This document shows, in pieces, positions 1,961-45,403 of a DNA stretch of 45,403 bases. Made by a program: the position numbers and the translations under genes. The DNA lies in the sequence record NC_027330.1; one strand, written 5' to 3'. The stretch's first letter is position 1, and every line of letters begins with the position of its first letter. The stretch is from Escherichia phage ECBP5. Under the pieces are notes generated by a model, which worked only from the letters and a program-made list of their open reading frames with translations, searched no databases and was not told the origin of the DNA.

Positions 1961-4594
1961 ATGTACACTAGCGATGAGCTTTACCAGAAACAACTTGAGC
2001 TAGAAGGGGAGATGCATGGCTACGGTGTTACTCGCTTTGACCGTAACAACCAACGTGCGATTGATAGCGGTACACCTTCAGACACTGATTGGAACCGCCG
2101 TTTACTTTCTAACTTCATTGAGCCTATGGTGAAGGGTATTAATGCTTATAAGGAGTACTACAAGACTAAAGCTGGACGGCCTACAGTGGCTTTAAAGTAC
2201 ATCCGGCAGGTGCAGCCAGAGCAAGCGGCATACATCGCCATTAAGAACATTCTGGATGTGCTGGGTAGTACAACATTTGATGCTAACTGGCTTGTTACCA
2301 CTATTGGGCGTAGGATTGAAGACCAAGTAAGATTTACTAAGCTTGAGGAGGCTGCACCTAAGTATGTAGGCAAGGTTAAGGATAGCTTAGCTAAGCGCAA
2401 CTCTCTCCAGTATGCACACCAGCATAAGGTACTGGTCGCTACTGAGAAGAAGCTAGCGGAGAATCCAGACCGTGCTCAGCTTGAGCTGCCACGCTGGCAG
2501 GAGTGGGCTGAGGAGGATTGCAAGCACGTTGGTAGCTTGCTGGTCAATATCTTTGAGCAGTGTATTCTGTTTGAGGGTGAGCCAGTAATCCGCAAGGAGG
2601 TGCAGACAGTTCGCAAAGGTACACTGGTCTTCATCAAGCCTACTGAGAAAGTTACCAAGTGGATTCATGAGTTCAGAGAGGCTATTGGCGGGCTTGCTCC
2701 AGCTTACGCACCTTGCGTAGTTCCTCCGCTTGATTGGACTTCCCCATTTACTGGCGGGTTCCATACTGAAGCTGTTAGCAGCACTCTACATCTTGCTAAG
2801 GTTCGCAACAAGCGCCACCTGCGCAAGCTGACTAAAGAGCAGATGCCAGCAGTCTACAAGGCTGTAAATAACTTGCAGAAAGTGCGCTGGCGTATCTCTG
2901 AGCGTGTACTGGCAACCGCTAATACACTAGTGGAGCTGGGCTTGCCTTATGCGCTGCCGTCAAAGGATGAAAGCGACTGGAAAGAAAAGAATCCATGCCC
3001 TGTACCTGAGTACCTGCAAGACCTGCGAGGCGAGCAGCTGAAAGCGGCGCTTACTGCCAGCCAGTGGGAGGCTTTTCAAGAGTGGAAACAACTGGCACGC
3101 CAGAACTACGACGAGGAGAGCGAGCGCGTAGCAAGCTTTAGGGAAGTTGTTCGTACTTTAGGGCAGGCTAACCGCTACGTTGGCTTTGATGCAATCTACT
3201 TTGTGTACACGCTGGACTTTCGCGGGCGTGTCTACTGCCAGAGCAGCCTTGTAAGCCCACAGGGTGGCGACTTGCAGAAAGCCCTCATCAAGTTTGCGGA
3301 TGGTATGAAGCTGGGTGAGCGCGGCGAGTACTGGTTCAAGGTGCATGGCGCTAACGAATGGGGCTGGGATAAGAAGACCTTTGATGAGCGCGTAGCTCTG
3401 GTCAGCGAACCTGAGTTCTGCGAGATGTGCCTAGACATTGCCAGTGACCCAGTGACCTTCAATGACTGGATTAAGGCCGATAAGCCGTGGCAGTTCCTCA
3501 ACTGGTGCTTTGAGTATGCTGACTTCCTGAAGCATGTGCAATCAGCTGGCAACCCACAGGACTTTGTAAGCTATATCCCTTGTGCAATGGATGGTTCTTG
3601 CTCTGGCATCCAGCACTACTCTGCAATGCTGCGCGATACTGTTGGCGGTACTGCTGTTAACTTGGTTAACTCTGACAAGCCTAATGACATCTACGGAGAG
3701 GTCTGCAAGGTGACTATTAAAGAGCTGCAAGCAATTGCTGACGGCTCACAGGTATATGACAGCAAGATTGACCCTGTATTAGCTCAGCAGCTGGCGCAGG
3801 AGTGGCTACGTCTGCAACCAAATCGCAGCCTGACCAAGAAACCTGTTATGACCCTGCCTTACGGCAGCACTCAGTTAACCTGCCGTGAGCATGTTAGCCA
3901 GTGGCTTAAAGATTTGCAGAAGGAGGAGAACAAGCGAGCTAAGGCAGAGTTCAGAGAGCCTATGAAGGTACACGCTTTCGGCGATGCAGACAGCGCTATG
4001 CCGCTAAAGTTTGCTGAGTCTCTTATGACTAGCATTGTTTGGCACTCTATCGGCAAGGTTGTAGTAGCTGCGAGGGCTGGTATGGCTTACATCAAAGCCG
4101 TAACAAGCTCAGTGGCTAAGATGAATATGCCGCTTGAGTGGACTACTCCAACAGGCTTTATTGTCCGTCAGGAGATTTACCAGTTCACAACACGTCAGGT
4201 AAATACTCAGCTGCTGGGTGGAACTAAGTTTGTGGTCAGCACTAAGAGTAAAGATATTGATTATCATCGTATGATTAACTCCTGTGCGCCTAACTTTGTT
4301 CACTCAATGGATGCGAGCCACCTTACACTGGCAACTAACTACTTTGCAGATGCAGGTATTAGCAGCATTGCAGTAATCCATGATAGCTTTGGCACACATG
4401 CAGGAGCCACTGACCTGCTGCGTGAGCGTCTGCGAGCTTCAATGGTAGATATGTACGAACAGCATGACGTTATCACTAACTTCCTTGCTGAAACTGAGGG
4501 CAGACTTATGACAGCTTTTGAGCACATTCGAGTGCCAGAGCGTGGTGAGCTGCAACTTGATAGCATTAATCAATCTACATACGCTTTTGCGTGA
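1961..4594 (+). CDS. Single-subunit DNA-directed RNA polymerase (T7 gene 1 homologue)
   Basis: 877 aa; T7 RNAP-like segments DGSCSGIQHYSAMLRD, APNFVHSMDASHL, HDSFGTHA and C-terminal ...YAFA. Confidence 0.95.
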   Translation: MYTSDELYQKQLELEGEMHGYGVTRFDRNNQRAIDSGTPSDTDWNRRLLSNFIEPMVKGINAYKEYYKTKAGRPTVALKYIRQVQPEQAAYIAIKNILDVLGSTTFDANWLVTTIGRRIEDQVRFTKLEEAAPKYVGKVKDSLAKRNSLQYAHQHKVLVATEKKLAENPDRAQLELPRWQEWAEEDCKHVGSLLVNIFEQCILFEGEPVIRKEVQTVRKGTLVFIKPTEKVTKWIHEFREAIGGLAPAYAPCVVPPLDWTSPFTGGFHTEAVSSTLHLAKVRNKRHLRKLTKEQMPAVYKAVNNLQKVRWRISERVLATANTLVELGLPYALPSKDESDWKEKNPCPVPEYLQDLRGEQLKAALTASQWEAFQEWKQLARQNYDEESERVASFREVVRTLGQANRYVGFDAIYFVYTLDFRGRVYCQSSLVSPQGGDLQKALIKFADGMKLGERGEYWFKVHGANEWGWDKKTFDERVALVSEPEFCEMCLDIASDPVTFNDWIKADKPWQFLNWCFEYADFLKHVQSAGNPQDFVSYIPCAMDGSCSGIQHYSAMLRDTVGGTAVNLVNSDKPNDIYGEVCKVTIKELQAIADGSQVYDSKIDPVLAQQLAQEWLRLQPNRSLTKKPVMTLPYGSTQLTCREHVSQWLKDLQKEENKRAKAEFREPMKVHAFGDADSAMPLKFAESLMTSIVWHSIGKVVVAARAGMAYIKAVTSSVAKMNMPLEWTTPTGFIVRQEIYQFTTRQVNTQLLGGTKFVVSTKSKDIDYHRMINSCAPNFVHSMDASHLTLATNYFADAGISSIAVIHDSFGTHAGATDLLRERLRASMVDMYEQHDVITNFLAETEGRLMTAFEHIRVPERGELQLDSINQSTYAFA

Positions 4595-5184: not shown

Positions 5185-5525
5185 AACTAAGTTATGAAGA
5201 ACTTGAGGCCAAGTGCGCTGCGCTGGCTGCGGAGAATGCGGGGCTGAAGAGTATACAGGAGTGGGCGGTTTCAGGCGTATTTAAATCAGGAGCTAAGGTA
5301 TTCGAGTCAACCAAAGCATCAGGATTTGACACTGACGACTGCCTACATGATGCGGTGCTTGTGATGCTATCTGAGCTGAAAACCCCGGCCACCGACGCTT
5401 TTCTGGCTGAAGTACGGGCGCAGGGTGTGGAGATGTTTGCAAAATATATAGCCCTTTACAATTCCAACTCAGAGCACCATGCGCAATCGTTCGCCGCACA
5501 GCTTCGCAAAGGGGTGCAGTTATGA
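5181..5525 (+). CDS. Hypothetical protein (114 aa)
   Basis: ORF translationally coupled to flanking genes. Confidence 0.6.
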   Translation: MKLSYEELEAKCAALAAENAGLKSIQEWAVSGVFKSGAKVFESTKASGFDTDDCLHDAVLVMLSELKTPATDAFLAEVRAQGVEMFAKYIALYNSNSEHHAQSFAAQLRKGVQL

Positions 5526-5743
5526 AACTTGTATTAGTCCTAGGGCTTGCTGATGGTCGTGTAATTGAGTGGCCTGATGATGCTGCACCTAAGTCTGTTA
5601 AGCCACCTGTCAACCGTGAAGGTGTTACGCAAACTTACAGCCTTGTAGGTTTCGTAGGTAACGAGGCTTACTATATACCTGAGTACACTACAGCAGCTCA
5701 GGCAATCAAACTATTAGTGGGGAGGGTATATGAGGAAGGTTAA
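5522..5743 (+). CDS. Hypothetical protein (73 aa)
   Basis: ATGA overlap with upstream gene. Confidence 0.5.
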   Translation: MKLVLVLGLADGRVIEWPDDAAPKSVKPPVNREGVTQTYSLVGFVGNEAYYIPEYTTAAQAIKLLVGRVYEEG

Positions 5744-5948: not shown

Positions 5949-5954
5949 GTCACA

Positions 5955-5984
5955 GGCAGCTACTTAGGTGGCTGCCTTTTCTTT
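5955..5984 (+). terminator. Rho-independent terminator candidate closing the early/RNAP operon
   Basis: GGCAGC...GCTGCC stem followed by TTTTCTTTT. Confidence 0.5.
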
Positions 5985-5994
5985 TATCTGGCTT

Positions 5995-6078
5995 GTACTA
6001 GTTTGATAGTACAGTTGTTGAGAGTTATTCTCAGTCTAGTATACTAGACTAGACCGAATCGTACTAGTTGGCTAGTAC
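5995..6078. repeat. Cluster of three short palindromes
   Basis: GTACTAGTTTGATAGTAC, AGTCTAGTATACTAGACT and GTACTAGTTGGCTAGTAC in tandem. Confidence 0.7.
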
Positions 6079-6153
6079 AACAGGCGTTCCTACGTGAATA
6101 CTTTAAAATTTTGCGGGCGATTATCCGTCAGAATTTAAAGTTTTCTGAAAATC

Positions 6154-6175
6154 TTTAGGCACTACAATAGGGAGC
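6154..6175 (+). promoter_or_regulatory. Phage-RNAP promoter candidate (consensus copy)
   Basis: TTTAGGCACTACAATAGGGAGC; resembles the T7-class promoter layout (CACTA..ATAGG core, +1 G). Confidence 0.6.
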
Positions 6176-6274
6176 AAGCTAAGTAAGTTAAGTAAGCTAT
6201 AGTAAGCTAACTAAAGCTTAGTAAGCTCCCCTCTTTCCCTCTTTATAGAGGGATATAATATAGTAAGCCTTATC

Positions 6275-6313
6275 AGCCCTCTTGAGTGTAGTAGCTCAGG
6301 AGGGCTTTATTTT
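6275..6313 (+). terminator. Rho-independent terminator candidate
   Basis: 12-bp stem AGCCCTCTTGAG/CTCAGGAGGGCT (one mismatch) followed by TTATTTT. Confidence 0.6.
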
Positions 6314-6331
6314 GTCTAGTACACTAGACTG
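6313..6331. repeat. Palindrome AGTCTAGTACACTAGACT family copy
   Basis: GTCTAGTACACTAGACTGG. Confidence 0.7.
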
Positions 6332-6335
6332 GAGA

Positions 6336-6357
6336 CTTAGGCACTCCAATAGATAAC
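6336..6357 (+). promoter_or_regulatory. Phage-RNAP promoter candidate (variant)
   Basis: CTTAGGCACTCCAATAGATAAC; two substitutions relative to consensus. Confidence 0.45.
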
Positions 6358-6375
6358 TAATCAACGGAGCAGTTT

Positions 6376-6528
6376 ATGCAAACTAGTATTAAGCCAGAGA
6401 AGATGCAGTCTAAGAAGCTACGTAAGCTGAATGAGAAGGAGCAAGAGGAGCTTGCAATCCGTCAGCAGCATAAGGGCAAGCACCATAAGACCCAGCGTGG
6501 CAAGCGCCCTGAGTGGGAGGCTTATTAA
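6376..6528 (+). CDS. Small basic hypothetical protein (50 aa)
   Basis: GGAG RBS upstream; K/R-rich; stop 2 nt before the primase-helicase ATG; not in ORF track. Confidence 0.45.
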   Translation: MQTSIKPEKMQSKKLRKLNEKEQEELAIRQQHKGKHHKTQRGKRPEWEAY

Positions 6529-6530
6529 GT

Positions 6531-8543
6531 ATGTCTATTGTTATGAACCTACCTTGTCCTGCCTGTCAAAAGAATGGTGCAGATAGGCATGGTAAATATT
6601 TGATGGTATTCAGTGACGGAGGAAAACTCTGCTTACATACTCACAACCATGATAACCGTGAGCGCTACTATGAGCCACCAGATGGTAAAGACCCTGTGTT
6701 TGACCGTGAGATTGATGGCAAGGTTCAGTATTCTCCTGAGCAGTTCCGCAAGCTGGAATCAGATGGCAAGCTGAGTGATTCTTTTACTCGTCATCTGGCT
6801 ATGTCTGGTATGAGGATGAAAGACCGCTATGAGATTCTCACTGATGATGAGCGCACAGCTCTGGAGAATGAGTGGCGCATGGACATGGAGTGGTTTGATG
6901 GTCTTTCCTTTAAGTCACTAGCTGACCGTGGCATACACGGACTAATCGCCAAGCTTTATAATGTGCGAGTGGGTCATGATGAGTCTGGTAAAGTCGTCCG
7001 TCACTACTACCCTACTTATGACAGCCAGCTCAATCTGATTGGAGCTAAGTGTCGTACACTGCCTAAAGAATTTATGTTCGGGCATCTTGGTCGTCGCTTT
7101 GGTGATACTGCATTGTTCGGTATTCATACCCAGCAGGCTGTACTTGATAGTGGTACGTTCAAGAAAGGTAAGATGGGTAAGCTGCTGGTAGTTGGCGGTG
7201 AGTGCGATGCGATGGCAGCTCAGCAGATGCTTGTCAAGAGTCTCAATAAGCTTGAGCAGTTCAATGGGCTGAAGTCACTTGATGGCCTGCGTCTGGCTCA
7301 TGTGTGGTCGCCAACTAAAGGCGAGACAGCACTAGAGGAGATAGTAGCTAACCGTGAATACCTCAATCAGTTTGAGGATATTGTATGGGGCTTTGATAAT
7401 GACGATGTAGGCAACAAGCTTAACCTTGACTGCTCCCGCCTGTTCAGACAGAAGTCTAAGTTCTTTAACTACCCAGCTGGGTGCAAGGATGCCAATGACT
7501 GCCTGCTCAAAGGTAGAGAGAAAGAGTTTGTAGATGCATGGTGGCAGCCAGCAGAGGCTAGAGTTAAGGGCAAGCTGCGAGAGGCTGGTCACTACGCTAA
7601 GCGAGCTAAGCAAGCTGTAGAGATGGGCTTGTCATACTTCTGTGAAGCTCTCAACATGATTACATTTGGTATTCGCCTGCGTTACTTGTCTGTGTGGGGT
7701 GCGGGTACTGGTGTTGGTAAGACTGAGATTACTACTCAGCATATTACTAGCCTTATCAAGCAAGGTAAGCCAGTGGTAGCTATCTACCTTGAGAACAGTC
7801 CAGAAGAAGTCCTCAAGATGGTGGCAAGCCAGATGGCTAACAAGGACTTTATGAGTCCACCACTAGGTGAGGATGATGAGTACGATGCATCTAGGGATTA
7901 CACTCAAGAGGAATTAGACGCTACAATAGATGACTTAGTAGCAACTGGCTTGCTTATCATACCGGACCTTGAAGGTAGTAAGGATGTAAACGTAATAATG
8001 GAAGTCCTTGAAGATGCATTAGCATTAGGCTACCAGTATTATGTTATTGATAACCTGACAGCCTTTGAGCACTACGTAGATGGTAAGGTTCAAGTGGGTG
8101 TAGCTGCTATTGATGAGACTATGAAGCGCATCGGTACGTTTAAGGATGAGCATGACGTCAACATTATGCTTCTCACTCACTTAAGTAGACCAGAGAAAGG
8201 CCGTGACCCTCATGAGCTTGGTGGTGAAGTCTATATCACTGACTTACGTGGTGCAGGCTCTATCAGCTTTTGGGCTAATGGTGTATGGGGCATCGAGCGT
8301 AATACACAGGCTGAAGCTATCAGTGACAAGTGTACTACGCTGCTGCGTAACCTCAAGTCTCGTGGTGTAGGCCACAAGGTAGGCTCCACAGTTGTGCTCC
8401 GCAAGGACATTACAACTGGTGAGTTTGAGTACCTTGAAGGTGTTCATGAGCTGCCTCAGGTTGGCAGGAAGAAGAAGGAGAGCAAGCGTGATGCGCAAGC
8501 TCAACGGTTTATTGATGATGCAGATACTGACGGAGAGTTCTAA
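6531..8543 (+). CDS. Bifunctional DNA primase-helicase (T7 gp4-like)
   Basis: N-terminal Cys4 zinc ribbon CPACQ...CLHTHNH, TOPRIM-like acidic motifs, Walker A GAGTGVGKTE, acidic C-terminus ending in Phe (DTDGEF); start set at ATG 6531 (GGGAGG RBS) rather than GTG 6513. Confidence 0.92.
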   Translation: MSIVMNLPCPACQKNGADRHGKYLMVFSDGGKLCLHTHNHDNRERYYEPPDGKDPVFDREIDGKVQYSPEQFRKLESDGKLSDSFTRHLAMSGMRMKDRYEILTDDERTALENEWRMDMEWFDGLSFKSLADRGIHGLIAKLYNVRVGHDESGKVVRHYYPTYDSQLNLIGAKCRTLPKEFMFGHLGRRFGDTALFGIHTQQAVLDSGTFKKGKMGKLLVVGGECDAMAAQQMLVKSLNKLEQFNGLKSLDGLRLAHVWSPTKGETALEEIVANREYLNQFEDIVWGFDNDDVGNKLNLDCSRLFRQKSKFFNYPAGCKDANDCLLKGREKEFVDAWWQPAEARVKGKLREAGHYAKRAKQAVEMGLSYFCEALNMITFGIRLRYLSVWGAGTGVGKTEITTQHITSLIKQGKPVVAIYLENSPEEVLKMVASQMANKDFMSPPLGEDDEYDASRDYTQEELDATIDDLVATGLLIIPDLEGSKDVNVIMEVLEDALALGYQYYVIDNLTAFEHYVDGKVQVGVAAIDETMKRIGTFKDEHDVNIMLLTHLSRPEKGRDPHELGGEVYITDLRGAGSISFWANGVWGIERNTQAEAISDKCTTLLRNLKSRGVGHKVGSTVVLRKDITTGEFEYLEGVHELPQVGRKKKESKRDAQAQRFIDDADTDGEF

Positions 8544-10826: not shown

Positions 10827-13412
10827 ATGAATAACTTTCCGTCAATGTTTGCCAATAAAGCTGACCGCCCCTCTGGTAAGGGGCGCTTTCTTGTTGGTGA
10901 CCTAGAGGGTGTAGGGCTTGTCAGGGCTATTCGTAAGCCGTCTGACATTCACGTCATCACCCTGCAAGATTACTTTAGCGGTGACTACTGGATTTTCTTC
11001 GACCCTATTGAGAATCGAATCAACCCTAGTGAGCTGCAAATGGAAGGTGAGCAGGATGGCTACATTGAGGATGGTGTTCGTATGCTCATGGAGTCAGAAG
11101 CTTTCTGCTTCCAGAACGGGGTAGGCTTTGACTTGCATGTGTTTGAGAAATGCTTCCCGTGGTTCAAGTATAACTACTTGGAGTCACGAGCAGCTAGACC
11201 ACATGCTGACATCTTCCCGTTTAAGTTTATGGATACCATGCTGGTTAGCCAGCTGACTTATCCAGACCGTCCATTGCCACCACAAGCTTACGCCATCGGA
11301 GCAGGTAATACAGGTCCGCATAGTATTGCAGCTCATGGTATCCGCATGGGTCGCTATAAGCCTGACCATGAGGACTGGTCTACCCTTACTGATGCAATGA
11401 TTCACCGTAACGTGGAAGACGTTGCTATCGGTACTGACATGCTTAAGTGGCTCATGGAGGGTGACTGGGCTGAGCAGAAAGCTCGTGGCCTTAACAAGAC
11501 TACTGGCTGCGGCATCGAGACTGCTTATCAGATGGAGCAGCAAGTAGCGCTCATGATTAGCCGTCAGGAGCAGCGTGGGTTCCGCTTTGATATGGCACAG
11601 GCTTACAAAGACTTCTGTACCATTGATAAGGAGATGGAAGATACAGCAGCTGCTGTTGACCCACTTATCCCACTCAGGCTGGTCACTAAGCCTTATAAGT
11701 TTGCTGACCTTAAATCAAGGTATGATGCACTTCTTAAATCTGGTCTGCTTGAGAATAGTAATCAAGATGATTTAGCTGCTTGGGGTTTATTGAGGCCATG
11801 TGATGTTAAAGACTTCTTCAATGGCATCCATCAGACCATGAAAGCTATGGGCGATGAAGCTCGCATGGGTGACAAGGCTACTATGTGGTCTTTGACAACC
11901 AAGAACGGTGACTACGGCAAGCGCCTGCAAGGTTACTTCCCTGAGATGCGGGGTAACATCAATGATACTCATGACCCTCTTGTAGCTGGTGCATTCACTC
12001 CAATTAGCTTTGAGCATATAGGATTGGGTAACCTTGACTACATCAAAGAGAAGGTGCTGTATCCGCTGGGCTGGCGTGGTGTTAACTTGTCTGACTCTGA
12101 GCAAGAGTGGTATGACGAGCATGGCACAACACGCTATCCGTGGGCTGGTAAGATTGATGATGACTCGCTTGAGCTGTGGAAGAAGAAGCAGGAAGTGCCA
12201 GAGTGGGCGCAGCAGGTTGTTAACTACTACATCTTACGCTCACGTCGCTCAGTTATCCTGAACCGTGGCGACCTTGACCACTTCCTTGAGAAGGGTCAGT
12301 GGCCTAAGCAGAAGAATGGGCGTCATGAATGTCGTGGCCTGCTGGCAGTAGCTTACTGCAAAGAGCATGACATGATGGCTATGGAATACTTTGCTAAGTT
12401 CCGTGAGTGGCCTACATCTGAGGATGAGGACTGGCGTGTACCAGCAGCGGCTTTCAGCATTGGTACTAACACGTTCCGTATGCGTCATCGCTTTGTGGTT
12501 AACATACCTGCTCGTGGGCTGTGGCCTCTGCGTCACCTGTTCATTGCATCCAAGGGTAAGCTTATCTTAGGCTGTGATGGGGCTGGACTTGAGCTGCGTA
12601 TGCTTAGTCACTTTATGAATGACCCTGAGTATCAGGACATCATTCTCACTGGTGACATTCATACACACAACCAGCTCAAAGCAGGCTTGCCTACTCGTGA
12701 TATGGCTAAGACATTCATCTATGCATTCCTGTATGGCTCAGGGATTGATGGCCTAGCTCGCTTGGCTGGCATTAGCTTTAGTGAGATGGAGCAGTGTATT
12801 GCTCGCTTCAAGGCAGAGCTACCTGCACTTGCTAAGCTCATTGAGCGTGTGGAAAATGCTGGTCGCAAGTTCGGATACCTGCAAGCTATTGATGGTAGAT
12901 GGGGTCGTATCCGTCGTAAGAATGGTAAGCCACTGCTGCACACTGCACTTAACGTATTGCTTCAGATGACAGGCTCTCTGGTCATGAAGTATGGTGAGTG
13001 CATCGCTGAGACTCAGATGATTGAGGAAGGAGTTGCATTAGATGATAAAGGCTATCCAGCTTTCGTGGCTAACGTACACGATGAAGTCCAGATGGAAGTC
13101 TCTGAAGATGAAGTTGATGTTATGGACTACACGTTGCCATATACACTTGATGGATTCGAGAATGAGAAGAAAGCTATCAAGGCAGTCTTTGATGTTGAAG
13201 AGAAGCGAGCGCACACAGATGATAGTGGGCGTAAGTGGTCAGCAGCTATCAAGGTTTCTGCTGCTGATGGTACTATCCATTGTCGCAGGTACTATCATCG
13301 AGCTGGTCACATCCTTATGGATGCTTTCGAGGCTGCTGGTGTTAAGTTCAACATGAGATGCCCACTTGCTGGTGAATATAAGATAGGTCGTAACTGGCAC
13401 GATACTCACTAG
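10827..13412 (+). CDS. DNA polymerase, family A, with 3'-5' exonuclease domain
   Basis: Exo I-like VGDLEG; motif A DGAGLELR; motif B RDMAKTFIYAFLYG; motif C VHDE; 861 aa. Confidence 0.93.
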   Translation: MNNFPSMFANKADRPSGKGRFLVGDLEGVGLVRAIRKPSDIHVITLQDYFSGDYWIFFDPIENRINPSELQMEGEQDGYIEDGVRMLMESEAFCFQNGVGFDLHVFEKCFPWFKYNYLESRAARPHADIFPFKFMDTMLVSQLTYPDRPLPPQAYAIGAGNTGPHSIAAHGIRMGRYKPDHEDWSTLTDAMIHRNVEDVAIGTDMLKWLMEGDWAEQKARGLNKTTGCGIETAYQMEQQVALMISRQEQRGFRFDMAQAYKDFCTIDKEMEDTAAAVDPLIPLRLVTKPYKFADLKSRYDALLKSGLLENSNQDDLAAWGLLRPCDVKDFFNGIHQTMKAMGDEARMGDKATMWSLTTKNGDYGKRLQGYFPEMRGNINDTHDPLVAGAFTPISFEHIGLGNLDYIKEKVLYPLGWRGVNLSDSEQEWYDEHGTTRYPWAGKIDDDSLELWKKKQEVPEWAQQVVNYYILRSRRSVILNRGDLDHFLEKGQWPKQKNGRHECRGLLAVAYCKEHDMMAMEYFAKFREWPTSEDEDWRVPAAAFSIGTNTFRMRHRFVVNIPARGLWPLRHLFIASKGKLILGCDGAGLELRMLSHFMNDPEYQDIILTGDIHTHNQLKAGLPTRDMAKTFIYAFLYGSGIDGLARLAGISFSEMEQCIARFKAELPALAKLIERVENAGRKFGYLQAIDGRWGRIRRKNGKPLLHTALNVLLQMTGSLVMKYGECIAETQMIEEGVALDDKGYPAFVANVHDEVQMEVSEDEVDVMDYTLPYTLDGFENEKKAIKAVFDVEEKRAHTDDSGRKWSAAIKVSAADGTIHCRRYYHRAGHILMDAFEAAGVKFNMRCPLAGEYKIGRNWHDTH

Positions 13413-13802: not shown

Positions 13803-14567
13803 ATGTCTTTAGATAACTTTGACTTCGGCGCAGACCTAGCAGAAGCGTCTGGTGTCAAACGAGTAAACCCTGAAGTTGGCTTGCACTTTGCTCGTTTGCG
13901 TAGTGTGATTCACTTAGGCTCAATTGCTGCCATGTACCGTGGAAAGCCAAAGCCACCAGTTAACAAGGCTGCTTTCATCTTTGAACTTAAGGGCGACCTT
14001 GATGAGATTGATGACCTGCACCCTGACAACGGTGAGCCATTGTGCATCGGCATCGGGGTTAACCTTACCAAAGGTGACAATGCCAAGCTCACAGAAGTTA
14101 TGGCAGCTCTCATCTCTAAGAAGGAGATGGAGGAAGGTACTGTCAAAGGTATGGATGACCTGATTGGTCGTGTCTGCCAGCTTGACCTGAAGGGCAGTGA
14201 TGCCAAGGGTGATGACGGTAAGCCTAAGTACGTTGACATCAAATCACTCAGCCCTGTGGCTAAGGCATTCGCCGCACAGATTCCTGAGCTGTCAGTAGCT
14301 GGCGTAGGTCACTGCCGCCTGTCTCAGCTGTCTATGGCTGCGATGGATGAGCTGAACGTGTTCCTCGATGTCCAAGAGGGCATCATGAAATCTGAGGAGT
14401 GGAAAGCAGGAACGCACCCAGCAATCGCTCTGGTAGAGGAAATCCGCAAGGAGCGTCCGAACTATGCCAAGGCTGAGAAGAAGTCTGACAAAGGCGCTGA
14501 CGAGCCACAGGGCGAGCAGGAGCCGTCTAAGCCAGCTGAGCAGATGAACACCGATGAGGAGTTCTAG
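13803..14567 (+). CDS. Putative ssDNA-binding protein (T7 gp2.5-like by size and tail); acidic C-terminus ending in Phe
   Basis: AGGAGAAAC RBS before ATG 13803; C-terminus ...EQEPSKPAEQMNTDEEF; N-terminal DNFDFGA motif shared with the exonuclease; SSB call is an inference. Confidence 0.6.
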   Translation: MSLDNFDFGADLAEASGVKRVNPEVGLHFARLRSVIHLGSIAAMYRGKPKPPVNKAAFIFELKGDLDEIDDLHPDNGEPLCIGIGVNLTKGDNAKLTEVMAALISKKEMEEGTVKGMDDLIGRVCQLDLKGSDAKGDDGKPKYVDIKSLSPVAKAFAAQIPELSVAGVGHCRLSQLSMAAMDELNVFLDVQEGIMKSEEWKAGTHPAIALVEEIRKERPNYAKAEKKSDKGADEPQGEQEPSKPAEQMNTDEEF

Positions 14568-14609
14568 TCTAGTACACTAGACTGAAGCCGTACTAGTTAG
14601 CTAGTACGG
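14564..14609. repeat. Two adjacent palindromes (family copies)
   Basis: TCTAGTCTAGTACACTAGACTGA and CCGTACTAGTTAGCTAGTACGG. Confidence 0.7.
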
Positions 14610-14610
14610 T

Positions 14611-14633
14611 ATTAGGCACTACAATAGGAATAG
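14611..14633 (+). promoter_or_regulatory. Phage-RNAP promoter candidate (consensus copy)
   Basis: ATTAGGCACTACAATAGGAATAG. Confidence 0.6.
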
Positions 14634-14750
14634 AATGCTCAACTTATGCATCCCTGTATCTGGCGGTCGCTACAAAGGATACAGGTTGCCTATAGGCTGT
14701 AATGGTGTCCAAAGCCAACGGCTTGGGTGGTGCATAAGCATGAGCATTCT
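14634..14750 (+). other. Structured element between tandem promoters (nested inverted repeats); candidate small RNA or replication origin
   Basis: Outer inverted repeat ATGCTCAACTTATGCA / TGCATAAGCATGAGCAT enclosing hairpins CCTGTATC..GATACAGG and CCAAGCC..GGCTTGG; no ORF. Confidence 0.35.
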
Positions 14751-14755
14751 TAACC

Positions 14756-14779
14756 TATTAAGCACTACAATAGGAATAG
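14756..14779 (+). promoter_or_regulatory. Phage-RNAP promoter candidate
   Basis: CTATTAAGCACTACAATAGGAATAG. Confidence 0.55.
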
Positions 14780-14814
14780 TAGAATAGCCACACCGTGTGT
14801 GCTCCCTTCTCAAC

Positions 14815-14838
14815 CTATTAAGCACTAAATAGATATAG
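14815..14838 (+). promoter_or_regulatory. Promoter-like repeat with 2-bp deletion in the core (possibly weak or inactive)
   Basis: CTATTAAGCACTAAATAGATATAG; about 35-bp duplication of the preceding promoter block. Confidence 0.35.
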
Positions 14839-14875
14839 TGAATATCTCTTTCAAACTTTATGAGGAATTAATATT

Positions 14876-25219: not shown

Positions 25220-25250
25220 TGCCCCGTCCTCTTGGATGGGGCTTATTTTT
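25220..25250 (+). terminator. Rho-independent terminator (T-phi-like, after capsid gene)
   Basis: GCCCCGTCC-TCTT-GGATGGGGC hairpin followed by TTATTTTTG. Confidence 0.7.
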
Positions 25251-38250: not shown

Positions 38251-38283
38251 TGGCAATAATCCCTTAGTTTTCATAACTTTGGG

Positions 38284-38305
38284 ATTAGGCACTACAATAG
38301 GAGAA
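38284..38305 (+). promoter_or_regulatory. Phage-RNAP promoter candidate (consensus copy)
   Basis: ATTAGGCACTACAATAGGAGAA followed by AGTAAG-repeat leader. Confidence 0.6.
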
Positions 38306-38422
38306 AGCTAAAGTAAGTACAGTAAGTAAACAGTAGCTATAAATAGCTATAGTAAGCTTTAGTTAGCCTAAGTAGTAACCTACTTATTGTCTTATTATAT
38401 TCTTTATAAGGAGAGCTATTAG

Positions 38423-39335: not shown

Positions 39336-39356
39336 CAGTCTAGTACGCTAGACTGG
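39336..39356. repeat. Palindrome family copy, terminator-like
   Basis: CAGTCTAGTACGCTAGACTGG followed by CCTCTTTCT. Confidence 0.6.
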
Positions 39357-42484: not shown

Positions 42485-42567
42485 TAAGTATTAATACTTA
42501 TTGAATCGTAACCAATTGGCAGCTTGCTAGGTAGTTATAGTAAGCTGCTGTTAACTGGAGTAAAGTT

Positions 42568-42696
42568 ATGTTATCTAATCAAGAGTTATTAGAAAAGTTT
42601 GATGAACTTATGTCACATCTCAATAGTGAAGACAACAGTATGGCTGAGGAGTTCAGAATTAATCTAGAGGAAGTATTAGAGTATCTTGTAAGCTAG
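42568..42696 (+). CDS. Small acidic hypothetical protein (42 aa)
   Basis: GGAG RBS 8 nt upstream; helical acidic peptide; weak support. Confidence 0.3.
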   Translation: MLSNQELLEKFDELMSHLNSEDNSMAEEFRINLEEVLEYLVS

Positions 42697-42873
42697 CTAG
42701 GTAGCCATTAGTGGTTACTGTAAGCTGGCCTTGAAACTTAAAATAGGGTGGACAGTTACAGCAGTTCCCGCCGCCGCCAGCTTCAGCTTTCCCCCATCGG
42801 GGTGGCTGCTGGCAACCTCTTAGGCCGCAGGCAGTTAGAGGGGGGGTGGGTAGGCTGGCTAGGTAGCTGGCAG

Positions 42874-43033
42874 TAGACCGACTGGTCTAGCGTAAGTCAT
42901 TGATGTTGTATCAGCTAACGAGTACATGAGAGCGCTGTACGTGAATACTTGCTGGCTCAAGCTGGCTGTGGCTCACAGAATTCTCCAGAGTGCGCTATAC
43001 ATATCAATGACTTACGTTAGACCGACTGGTCTA
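42874..43033. repeat. Two direct copies of 16-bp near-palindrome TAGACCGACTGGTCTA flanking an inverted repeat CGTAAGTCATTGAT / ATCAATGACTTACG
   Basis: Copies at 42874-42889 and 43018-43033; inverted repeat arms at 42891-42904 and 43003-43016. Confidence 0.75.
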
Positions 43034-43486
43034 CTAGTGGCTGGTCAGGCAGCTGCTGTGAGCTGGCTAGGTGGCTTACGGATAGCCGATTGTGAGCAGC
43101 CAGTGAGCCGCTGTGGGCTTCAGCTCCGCTGTGGCTACGGTTGGCTTGCCAGTGGCTTGAGGCGCTCTGTGAGCTGCTGAGGGCTGTGGCTTGCTGTACT
43201 CGTGTGCTAGTACGCTGCTGTGTGTATCTGTCTTTAGTCTGATGGGCTACTGTCTTTAGTTTGCTGCACCACTGGTAGCTTATTGGGTAGCTCATAGGTA
43301 GCTTACAAGGCTCACAGCTTGCTGGTACTACTGAGGGCTTACTAGGTAGCTTGCTATCACTGACTAGGTAGCTGCTGTTAGTTCACTAGGTAGCTAGCTA
43401 TGGCTTACTAGGTAGTTACTAGGTGGATTGATGTAAGCTTACTCAAGCTCTCTCTTAGTGCATCATTCGATGCACAATATAAGAAG

Positions 43487-43510
43487 AATAAGACACTACA
43501 ATAAGAATAG
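43487..43510 (+). promoter_or_regulatory. Phage-RNAP promoter-like motif (variant) near presumed left end
   Basis: AATAAGACACTACAATAAGAATAG. Confidence 0.4.
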
Positions 43511-43693: not shown

Positions 43694-43712
43694 TCAGTCT
43701 AGTACACTAGAT
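43694..43712. repeat. Palindrome family copy
   Basis: CAGTCTAGTACACTAGATT. Confidence 0.6.
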
Positions 43713-45192: not shown

Positions 45193-45403
45193 ATGAGCAG
45201 GGAATTATCTTTAAGGTTTAATGAATCTAATAAGCGCATGGATGCATTGCTAAGTGCAATGAATAGGGCTAACCCTCTATCAGTAGAGTATGAGGAGCTT
45301 AGTAAAATGGCTCACAGCGAGTTGCAAACAATGCAAGCTATTAACAACAGCTCATTGCAACAACTAGAAATGCACTGGACAACCTCAGGTGACTTTAGCC
45401 ACC
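45193..45403 (+). CDS. Early hypothetical protein, 5' portion (continues at 1..234 across the wrap-around)
   Basis: ATG at 45193 one base after the upstream stop; open to the window end. Confidence 0.5.
   Translation, partial: MSRELSLRFNESNKRMDALLSAMNRANPLSVEYEELSKMAHSELQTMQAINNSSLQQLEMHWTTSGDFSH
45196..45403. repeat. Exact duplicate of 1-208
   Basis: Identical to window start. Confidence 0.9.

Follow-up and report, generated by a model that had tools for sequence, protein, structure and literature searches.

The 45,403-bp sequence of the APEC coliphage KBNP1315 (record NC_027330.1, Escherichia phage ECBP5; the whole of this stretch is hereafter called the window) belongs to an SP6-like podophage of the T7 supergroup and carries all its large open reading frames (ORFs) on the + strand. 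The subject of this work is a unit without any ORF, named P1 after its promoter, that lies within the 428 intergenic bp (5949-6375) separating the last small early gene behind the RNA polymerase (RNAP) gene from a 50-aa basic ORF preceding the primase/helicase gene. The unit is a conserved, promoter-proximal non-coding leader that is present twice in the window, and its first copy is capped by a terminator throughout the genus. Its parts are the following:

6153-6170, + strand: phage-RNAP promoter P1 (-17 to +1), with 0 mismatches to the 17-mer consensus
6170-6313, + strand: predicted ORF-less transcript of about 144 nt, with three hairpins (minimum free energy, MFE, -60.2 kcal/mol; z = -6.1)
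6176-6227, + strand: array of 9-10-nt units AAGCTAAGT / AAGCTATAGT (Tandem Repeats Finder, TRF: period 9, 5.6 copies, 80% match, score 65)
6236-6253, + strand: small GC hairpin UCCCUCU-UUAU-AGAGGGA (hairpin 2), 7 pairs, 100% paired across relatives
6254-6274, + strand: AU-rich linker of 21 nt, single-stranded in the fold prediction, with one extra TATAGTAAGCC unit
6275-6314, + strand: intrinsic terminator, with a stem at 6275-6306 (13 pairs, 6-nt loop) followed by TTTATTTT
38283-38422, + strand: second copy, consisting of a perfect promoter (+1 G38300), a repeat array at 38305-38367, a pyrimidine tract and a Shine-Dalgarno site, then ATG 38423 (TRF, promoter scan and alignment)

The P1 core TTAGGCACTACAATAGG at 6155-6171 matches the window's phage-RNAP (SP6-type) promoter consensus at 17 of 17 positions. 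The promoter that a first-pass annotation of the sequence had placed at 6154 was thereby confirmed, and it is of the phage-RNAP type rather than a sigma-70 promoter. When up to three mismatches were allowed, TTAGGCACTACAATAGG was found ten times in the window, always on the + strand, against 0.22 copies expected, and only four copies are perfect (6155, 14612, 24010 in front of the capsid gene, and 38285). Transcription from P1 would start at G6170, which we take to be +1 by analogy with the SP6 promoter, and end at about 6313, giving a predicted RNA of 144 nt. The discrete transcript of about 140 nt without an ORF that had been proposed thus follows, as a prediction, from the sequence, and the arrangement is kept in all ten genus relatives examined. 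No credible ORF was detected in 5950-6375, since the ORFs of at least 20 aa in this region (22-38 aa) start only with TTG or GTG and are without a Shine-Dalgarno site. The proposed terminator at 6275-6313 is also present, although its stem contains 13 pairs and not 12 bp; seven of these are G-C, and the predicted pairs include two G.U. Its tail resembles that of the post-capsid terminator at 25221-25242. The promoter and terminator predictions are already published: the S2 Table of the 2015 genome paper (PMC4640515) lists P1 (6153-6172), a second promoter P2 (6335-6354), the 38283 promoter and the sequence of the 6275 terminator, the last with a wrong coordinate range, whereas the repeats and the ORF-less unit were left without comment.

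The promoter scan also revealed tandem phage promoters at 14612, 14758 and about 14840 (region 14612-14860), separated by ORF-less spacers. The spacer 14627-14755 folds at -57.7 kcal/mol (z = -6.2) and is a candidate for a second structured non-coding RNA or an alternative origin-like region. A promoter-like site, TTAGACGCTACAATAGA, with three mismatches, is located at 7914-7930 within the primase/helicase gene, and the same variant core serves as P1 in the IMG/VR contig 3300045988_028890.

The tandem repeats noted after the promoter correspond to the TRF array at 6176-6227. Exact AGTAAGCT occurs three times within 37 nt at this array and 11 times in the whole window, against 4 expected, and the density of the motif family on the + strand reaches 10 hits per 80 nt at the first leader and 8 at the second, the next best 80-nt segment having 4. 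Closed by the pairing of 5' GGGAGC with GCTCCC, the array is predicted to form a 61-nt irregular 5' hairpin (6170-6230) with a folding energy of -25 kcal/mol on its own (z = -4.2). The whole unit is kept in ten relatives, with a repeat number that varies from 3 to 11: about 3 in vB_Kp_Z1, and 6, 9 and 11 perfect copies of TAGTAAGCTA in otherwise near-identical Klebsiella phages. In the modelled structures the Klebsiella-phage units self-pair, GCUAUAGU giving 8-bp helices with terminal G.U pairs and AA/AA loops between them, in which case the 5' hairpin would simply lengthen as copies are added. All 10 genus members keep the succession of hairpin, AU-rich single strand and terminator. With regard to covariation, 98.7% of the cells were paired across the relatives, with one C-G to U-A pair change and one U-A to U-G change; both are found in hairpin 2, the former in the Klebsiella phages. 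With sequences this close to one another, the covariation signal is weak.

Arrays with periods of 22 nt and 11 nt were also seen at 43228-43415 (and at 42520-42730). They are made up of ACTAGGTAGCTTGCTATCACTC and GGTAGCTTATA and hold inverted copies of the leader unit (GCTTACTAGGTAGCT); the predicted pairing of the 43228-43415 array with two leader units amounts to -26 kcal/mol, about 5.7 standard deviations below the mean.

The second copy begins 50 nt after the stop codon of the terminase-large gene and leads to ATG 38423, the start of a tail-needle-knob gene (Pfam PF16532, E = 1.4e-44). Its array at 38305-38367 has period 10, 6.4 copies and 67% match (TRF). The homology of the leader at 38284-38400, which the first-pass annotation had pointed out, extends over the full length of the leaders (alignment A2) and is not a matter of the promoter alone: the two leaders share the promoter, a G(G)AGnAAGCT start, the repeats, TAGCCTTAGTAGCT, the pyrimidine tract and a small hairpin. 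The 3' arm of the first-copy hairpin (GAGGGA) aligns with the Shine-Dalgarno site of the second leader (TAAGGAGAG), and at the position of the second leader's ATG the first leader has GTAAG and then the terminator. The second leader is not significantly structured in the window (z = 0.06 and -1.06). It is conserved ahead of differing genes: most phages have the tail needle knob there, and vB_Kp_Z1 has a large ORF (about 3.5 kb) that carries no annotation.

To assess conservation we compared the window with its nearest database relatives, which are Vibrio phage JSF38, Pseudomonas phage MR4, Pectobacterium phage PP99 and several Klebsiella phages (Gajwadongvirus is the genus given for PP99, MR4 and vB_Kp_Z1), and with the Edwardsiella phage DT115P1. 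Four-fold-degenerate sites of the primase gene, which are 61% identical between the window and the Edwardsiella phage, served as the neutral reference. Against this value the repeats were 90% identical, hairpin 2 88%, the linker 80% and the terminator 92%, indicating sequence-level constraint on the transcribed part. The terminator (6275-6314) is 92-100% identical in relatives, and together with an early terminator at 5954, 320 bp away, it is the best-conserved element of the region. In PP99, Roth32 and MR4 it is 100% identical, within a 98-100% block that also covers P2 and the gp1.1-like gene, and the 22-nt P2 leader is 95% identical in PP99; the identity of the terminator to these three phages may reflect recent exchange rather than selection. 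In IMG/VR, a scan with the terminator returned three relatives and a scan with a repeat pair returned one of these and one unrelated GC-rich contig, while 15 of the 16 loci from a three-unit scan were unrelated tandem repeats. A primase-based locus search of IMG/VR recovered only the same close relatives, and no similarity to the P1 unit was found in E. coli genomes.

Whole-genome motif scans of the window, the Edwardsiella phage and the distant Klebsiella phage KL01 each returned two copies and no more, one upstream of the gp1.1-like/primase genes and one just after the terminase-large gene. The promoter consensus of KL01 differs (TTAAGTTACACAATAGA). In KL01 and 6939 the first leader has repeats and hairpins without a terminator and runs into P2, and in VL73 and Nufs112 it drives an inserted ORF instead (gp6 and an HNH endonuclease, respectively). 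Since the terminator is missing in these four phages, the discrete small RNA would be genus-specific. K1-5 and SP6 display the same architecture at the same two positions and have a third leader near 12.5 kb (6038-6175, 12598 and 37611 in K1-5; 6135-6250, 12560 and 37791 in SP6), with a repeat unit of the TAGGTA/AAGGA type that differs from that of the window. Autocorrelation in four genomes placed a 9-10-nt period as the top or second-ranked shift for both the first and second leaders (best z from 1.9 to 5.1), whereas control leaders were without this period, except for K1-5 P13355. Moreover, the first-copy leaders are predicted to fold as long irregular hairpins in every clade (z = -4.2 in the window, -3.4 in KL01, -2.6 in SP6 and -2.2 in K1-5). 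The core that is conserved across the wider clade consists of a promoter, periodic repeats, a pyrimidine tract and a hairpin. The purine-rich SP6 and K1-5 leaders, with their 9-10-nt-periodic AGGA/TAGGT units, also contain many GGA motifs resembling CsrA-binding sites.

The surroundings of the unit include the following features:

1961-4594, + strand: RNAP gene, 877 aa (ORF list)
5954-5985, + strand: early-region intrinsic terminator (TE-like) of 10 pairs followed by TTTCTTTT, which closes the RNAP gene cluster and forms the left edge of the control region
6096-6145, + strand: inverted repeat/stem-loop just 5' of P1, with 21-nt arms that are 76% complementary
6314-6353, + strand: palindrome GTCTAGTACACTAGAC and the weaker phage promoter P2 (6337-6353), driving the gp1.1-like ORF (6376-6528) and primase/helicase (promoter and repeat scans)
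6531-8543, + strand: primase/helicase gene (ORF list)
10827-13412, + strand: DNA polymerase gene (ORF list)

The early terminator is conserved at 97-100% in relatives, and it is precisely here (5952) that most relatives start to resemble the window. Homing-type endonuclease genes are inserted at differing points around the control region and primase gene in Nufs112 (1774-2235), the Edwardsiella phage (2126-2632) and vB_Kp_Z1 (3614-3990), with positions referring to their own sequence stretches. Because of these insertions and the onset of similarity at 5952, the control region is best regarded as a mosaic junction. The stem-loop at 6096-6145 is recognisable in PP99, KL01, VL73 and Nufs112, and its identity to the Edwardsiella phage (64%) is near-neutral.

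Three palindromes were noted in the intergenic regions. A 16-bp family, GTCTAGTA(T/C)(A/G)CTAGA(C/T), has 14 matches against 1.8 expected, with intergenic members at 6034-6049, 6314-6329, 14567-14582, 39338-39353 and 43697-43712, and often stands just 5' of phage promoters (6337, 14612); its equivalents at the same places are GTCTCACATGTGAGAC in K1-5 and TTGTCTCCTATAAGAGACAA in KL01 and VL73. Its members may act as operators, processing sites or pause hairpins. The second family, GTACTAGTTnnnTAGTAC (5995-6012, 6061-6078 and 14590-14607; 6 matches, with 0.17 expected), occurs alongside the first and shares its intergenic regions. The third palindrome, TTGAGAGTTATTCTCA (6018-6045), has TATACT 16 nt downstream, together making up a sigma-70-like promoter with a 10/12 match; it reads TTGATAATAATTATCA in relatives such as Roth32 and TTGATAATGATTATCATT in VL73 (about 1600-1620 of its stretch), close to a Fur box. 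The window ends overlap exactly by 208 bp (1-208 = 45196-45403), which PMC4640515 called 'direct terminal repeats'. This overlap is situated inside an ORF (ATG 45194, reading to the window end at 45403), and its start copy is overlapped by ORF 43-234. Such a location is unusual for a terminal repeat of the T7 type and suggests an overlap left by circular assembly; the GC-rich, repeat-laden 42750-43500 looks a better candidate for the true end region.

Several known identities were tried for the unit and rejected. A translational enhancer acting through 16S rRNA pairing (T7 epsilon type) was discarded, as the duplex energies of -15.7 to -20 kcal/mol compare with shuffled minima of -13.9 to -18.5 kcal/mol, and matches between the pyrimidine tract and Shine-Dalgarno sites were trivial. 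A CsrB/RsmZ-type sponge does not agree with a unit, AGUAAGCU, that is not a loop-exposed GGA and with repeats that pair together in both the MFE and centroid structures. The 9-10-nt units are also too short for a ToxI-like type III antitoxin (about 36 nt), with no toxin-like ORF adjacent, and for an iteron-type origin (17-22 bp), with no Rep-like gene nearby; unit length and context likewise led us to reject a CRISPR-repeat mimic. Rfam gave no hit at gathering score (the best in 6150-6320 at E up to 10 reached 24.5 bits against a cut-off of 65), and a tRNA/tmRNA search gave none. No conserved small-RNA target was found within the phage, the sole notable match being a 14-nt complement of the linker at 5665. 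This is a perfect inverted repeat (5665-5678 versus 6258-6271) between the ORF 5522-5743, where it codes for EAYYI, and the linker; among the relatives checked MR4 alone shares it with the window, and it is probably due to chance. Finally, R-loop thermodynamics, which was considered as support for an origin, was not supportive in the window phage.

The first-pass annotation had offered three readings: a small RNA, a replication origin primed by transcription, and a shared 5' untranslated region (UTR) element. The homology of the leaders stands and the origin has positional support; R-loop propensity, an Rfam family and a conserved target all failed and the AT-richness is moderate, and none of the computations separates the three readings. 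The reading that we place first, tentatively, is that the P1 module may be the SP6-group counterpart of the 'replication promoter' regions of T7. It ranks first because a strong promoter without a gene is found at positions that coincide twice with T7 origins, and because there is precedent in the family. P1 serves no gene: although as perfect as the capsid promoter, it leads to a terminator instead of an ORF, and the replication genes are driven by a separate promoter, P2. In T7, the tandem promoters phi1.1A and phi1.1B lie between gene 1 and gene 1.1 and phiOR begins 99 nt after the terminase-large stop; the former are the primary replication origins and the latter a secondary origin (PMC8373140), which also supports plasmid replication (bioRxiv 2024.07.25.605042). 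The two copies of the leader, before gp1.1/primase and after terminase-large, thus occupy the sites of the T7 primary origin and of one secondary origin. K1-5 gp8 is a homolog of T7 gp1.1 (E = 6e-12) and the equivalent SP6 gene is labelled 'gp1.1' in RefSeq. The 50-aa ORF of the window shares position and character with gp1.1-type ORFs; it gave no BLASTP match to T7 gp1.1 or K1-5 gp8, and its sole sequence link is to Nufs112 ORF23, which matches phrog_2490 at 3.9e-5. The limitation to two copies at these positions in the window, the Edwardsiella phage and KL01, the analogous 9-10-nt-periodic leaders of SP6 and K1-5 and the tolerance of a variable repeat number (3-11) also favour an origin, as does the weakness of the duplex, with the first and second copies at the 6th and 0.8th percentile of 60-nt segments and at 37% and 33% GC (genome mean 46%).

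As we envisage it, the phage RNAP would start at G6170, cross the repeat array (37% GC) and meet the hairpin/U-run terminator some 140 nt on. Transcription through the easily melted leader would open the duplex and supply or position a primer, as at T7 phi1.1A/B and phiOR, whereupon the phage DNA polymerase and primase-helicase could begin replication. The terminator would confine the strong transcription from P1 and keep it out of the replication genes driven by the weaker P2, and the repeat-built hairpin RNA may be a by-product or a secondary regulator. The RNA itself, 144 nt and structured, is predicted to be highly expressed.

A number of observations weigh against an origin. We know of no mapped origin in any SP6-like phage, so that the argument is one of positional analogy, and as T7 has several origin-associated promoters, a coincidence at two positions is only modest evidence. 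The AT-richness is unexceptional, other leaders of the window being as weak or weaker as duplexes (P13415, 0.4th percentile), and the T7 origin is much more AT-rich. The RNA:DNA-hybrid minus duplex energy (nearest-neighbour) was at the 19th and 42nd percentile for the two copies and at the 83rd for the first copy of KL01; the K1-5 and SP6 leaders were in the top 0.3-5% of their genomes for hybrid favourability. GC skew along the window is monotonic, with no inflection. P1 is less conserved towards the Edwardsiella phage (72%) than its transcribed part (80-92%), and in PP99 it has four changes in the presumed specificity region. The constraint on the transcribed part, 80-92% against 61%, is more readily reconciled with a specific RNA or protein-binding role than with a generic unwinding element, and an RNA that is terminated and released would not obviously serve as a primer.

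If the RNA is itself the product, it may act in trans, possibly as a decoy, the 144-nt species mimicking the 5' UTR formed by the second leader and ending at a terminator. Its 5-11 repeat units could, in a CsrB-like manner, titrate a phage or host factor away from the matching units of the tail/lysis mRNA leader, or its linker could pair with targets. The discrete promoter and terminator, the lack of an ORF, the very stable fold, the layout retained in 10 of 10 genus members, a conservation that clearly exceeds the neutral level, the compensatory pair of hairpin 2, the same motif array in an mRNA leader and the variable copy number all agree with such a role, which we nevertheless regard as doubtful. 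Outside the genus the promoter, repeats and hairpin are retained without the terminator; in the predicted fold the repeats are paired rather than exposed in loops; there is no known binding protein, no Rfam family, no conserved target within the phage and nothing similar in E. coli genomes; and the U-tail is interrupted (UUUAUUUU), which makes it poor for Hfq. On the positive side, phage 5'-UTR-derived non-coding RNAs are documented, one of them upstream of a primase/helicase gene (PMC10914365). The more specific proposal that the first-copy RNA is a decoy of the late-gene 5' UTR, its 3-11 units soaking up an RNA-binding regulator or nuclease and so setting late-gene timing, is quite improbable in our judgement; the AGGA/AAGGA-rich versions of SP6 and K1-5 might do likewise with CsrA. 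Alternatively, the leader could work in cis, its 5' hairpin being an R1.1-like RNase III site or a 5' stabiliser and its terminator an attenuator or insulator which, together with the early terminator at 5954, isolates the early region and meters P1 read-through into the replication operon. Such a role is consistent with the hairpins that first copies are predicted to form in every clade although their sequences are unrelated (z from -2.2 to -4.2, and -2.7 in T7), with the T7 R1.1 site between phi1.1A and phi1.1B, with the leaders of KL01 and 6939 that run straight to P2 and genes and those of VL73 and Nufs112 that drive an ORF, and with the strong conservation of the two terminators. We consider it unlikely all the same, as the second leader shares the motif and is not significantly structured, a terminator right after a stabilising leader defeats stabilisation, and early transcripts should already end at 5954; moreover, covariation is minimal, the one compensatory pair being equalled in 14 of 500 shuffles, and the terminator identity to PP99, Roth32 and MR4 may stem from recent exchange of the 98-100% block.

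The repeats may instead matter as DNA, as an array of binding or wrapping sites phased by 9-10 bp (one helical turn) for a phage or host protein involved in replication, packaging or transcription control. The period is indeed kept in both leaders across clades though the unit sequence differs, the unit is conserved at the sequence level within relatives, and inverted copies (GCTTACTAGGTAGCT) cluster near the end at 43228-43415. However, no candidate protein is known, the orientation is constant relative to transcription, partial palindromy (AGCT, CTATAG) makes chance inverted matches easy, and the AGTAAGCT arrays in other viral contigs are unrelated, all of which leaves this explanation very unlikely. 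Least probable is a relic, in which an expression cassette has lost its gene and the repeats are functionless slippage products. GTAAG in the first leader where the second has ATG, the ORF after the same leader in VL73 and Nufs112, and the drift in copy number would suit a relic; the transcribed part is, however, 80-92% identical to the Edwardsiella phage against 61% at neutral sites, and the gene-less arrangement is kept in every genus member as well as in KL01, 6939, K1-5 and SP6.

In the published literature searched we found no description of the repeat-built leader, its homologous second copy, the conservation at two positions in the SP6 supergroup with a 9-10-nt period, or the positional match to T7 origins, and no SP6-like phage transcriptome. 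Many therapeutic coliphages and Klebsiella phages belong to the SP6/K1-5/Gajwadongvirus branch of the T7 supergroup, which is also the source of the SP6 RNA polymerase tool; in this group the two copies may mark the origins of replication or encode a new small RNA. An ORF-less promoter unit of consensus strength at two T7-origin positions offers a concrete and cheap test for origin activity. If an abundant structured RNA is made, it would to our knowledge be the group's first non-coding RNA ascribed to a single-subunit phage RNAP, and of unusual build, a hairpin of self-pairing 10-nt repeats whose number varies between near-identical phages. Whichever reading holds, the 9-10-nt-periodic leader is an undescribed conserved feature worth annotating in these genomes.

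A close parallel among known systems is the gene 1/1.1 region of T7. Both regions follow the RNAP gene (cluster) and precede a small basic gp1.1-type ORF and the replication genes, and in both the first of two tandem phage-RNAP promoters is followed by a structured segment without an ORF (the T7 transcript from phi1.1A to phi1.1B folds with z = -2.7). The T7 R1.1 RNase III site lies between phi1.1A and phi1.1B; likewise, a 61-nt irregular hairpin of about two helical turns is modelled between P1 and P2, and it could be a substrate for RNase III cleavage. The AT-rich segment, in contrast, comes after the first promoter in the window and after the second in T7, and that of the window consists of 9-10-nt repeats, ends in an intrinsic terminator and is only 63% AT; there is no sequence similarity, and a role as origin is suggested by positional analogy. 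The second leader resembles T7 phiOR in having a perfect-consensus promoter about 50-100 nt after the terminase-large stop and an extended AT-rich leader in which short repeats recur periodically (period 11 and z = 3.3 in T7), followed by a small late gene. It differs in that it precedes the tail-needle-knob gene and about 5 kb of late genes rather than the genome end, again with no sequence similarity.

With regard to RNAs, the predicted P1 transcript has in common with the CsrB and RsmZ small RNAs the many copies of a short motif, the terminator, the lack of an ORF, the presence of the motif in an mRNA leader as well, and a variable copy number, whereas its motif is AGUAAGCU and not GGA and its units are predicted to be paired instead of lying in loops. 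The 5'-UTR-derived non-coding RNAs of Pseudomonas phages, which arise by premature termination and were detected by ONT-cappable-seq (PMC10914365), likewise have a promoter and then a terminator before the first ORF. They are conserved in relatives; the P1 unit is conserved in all 10 members of its genus, and its terminator is absent in KL01, 6939, VL73 and Nufs112. Those phages are unrelated, however, and rely mostly on the host RNAP, and their RNAs are without a repeat array, while the KBNP1315 RNA is predicted from sequence alone. As in these RNAs, P1 combines a promoter of its own with an intrinsic terminator ahead of any ORF and no coding potential. The P1 unit falls within known kinds, namely the T7 replication-promoter regions and the 5'-UTR-derived non-coding RNAs of phages, rather than constituting a new category.

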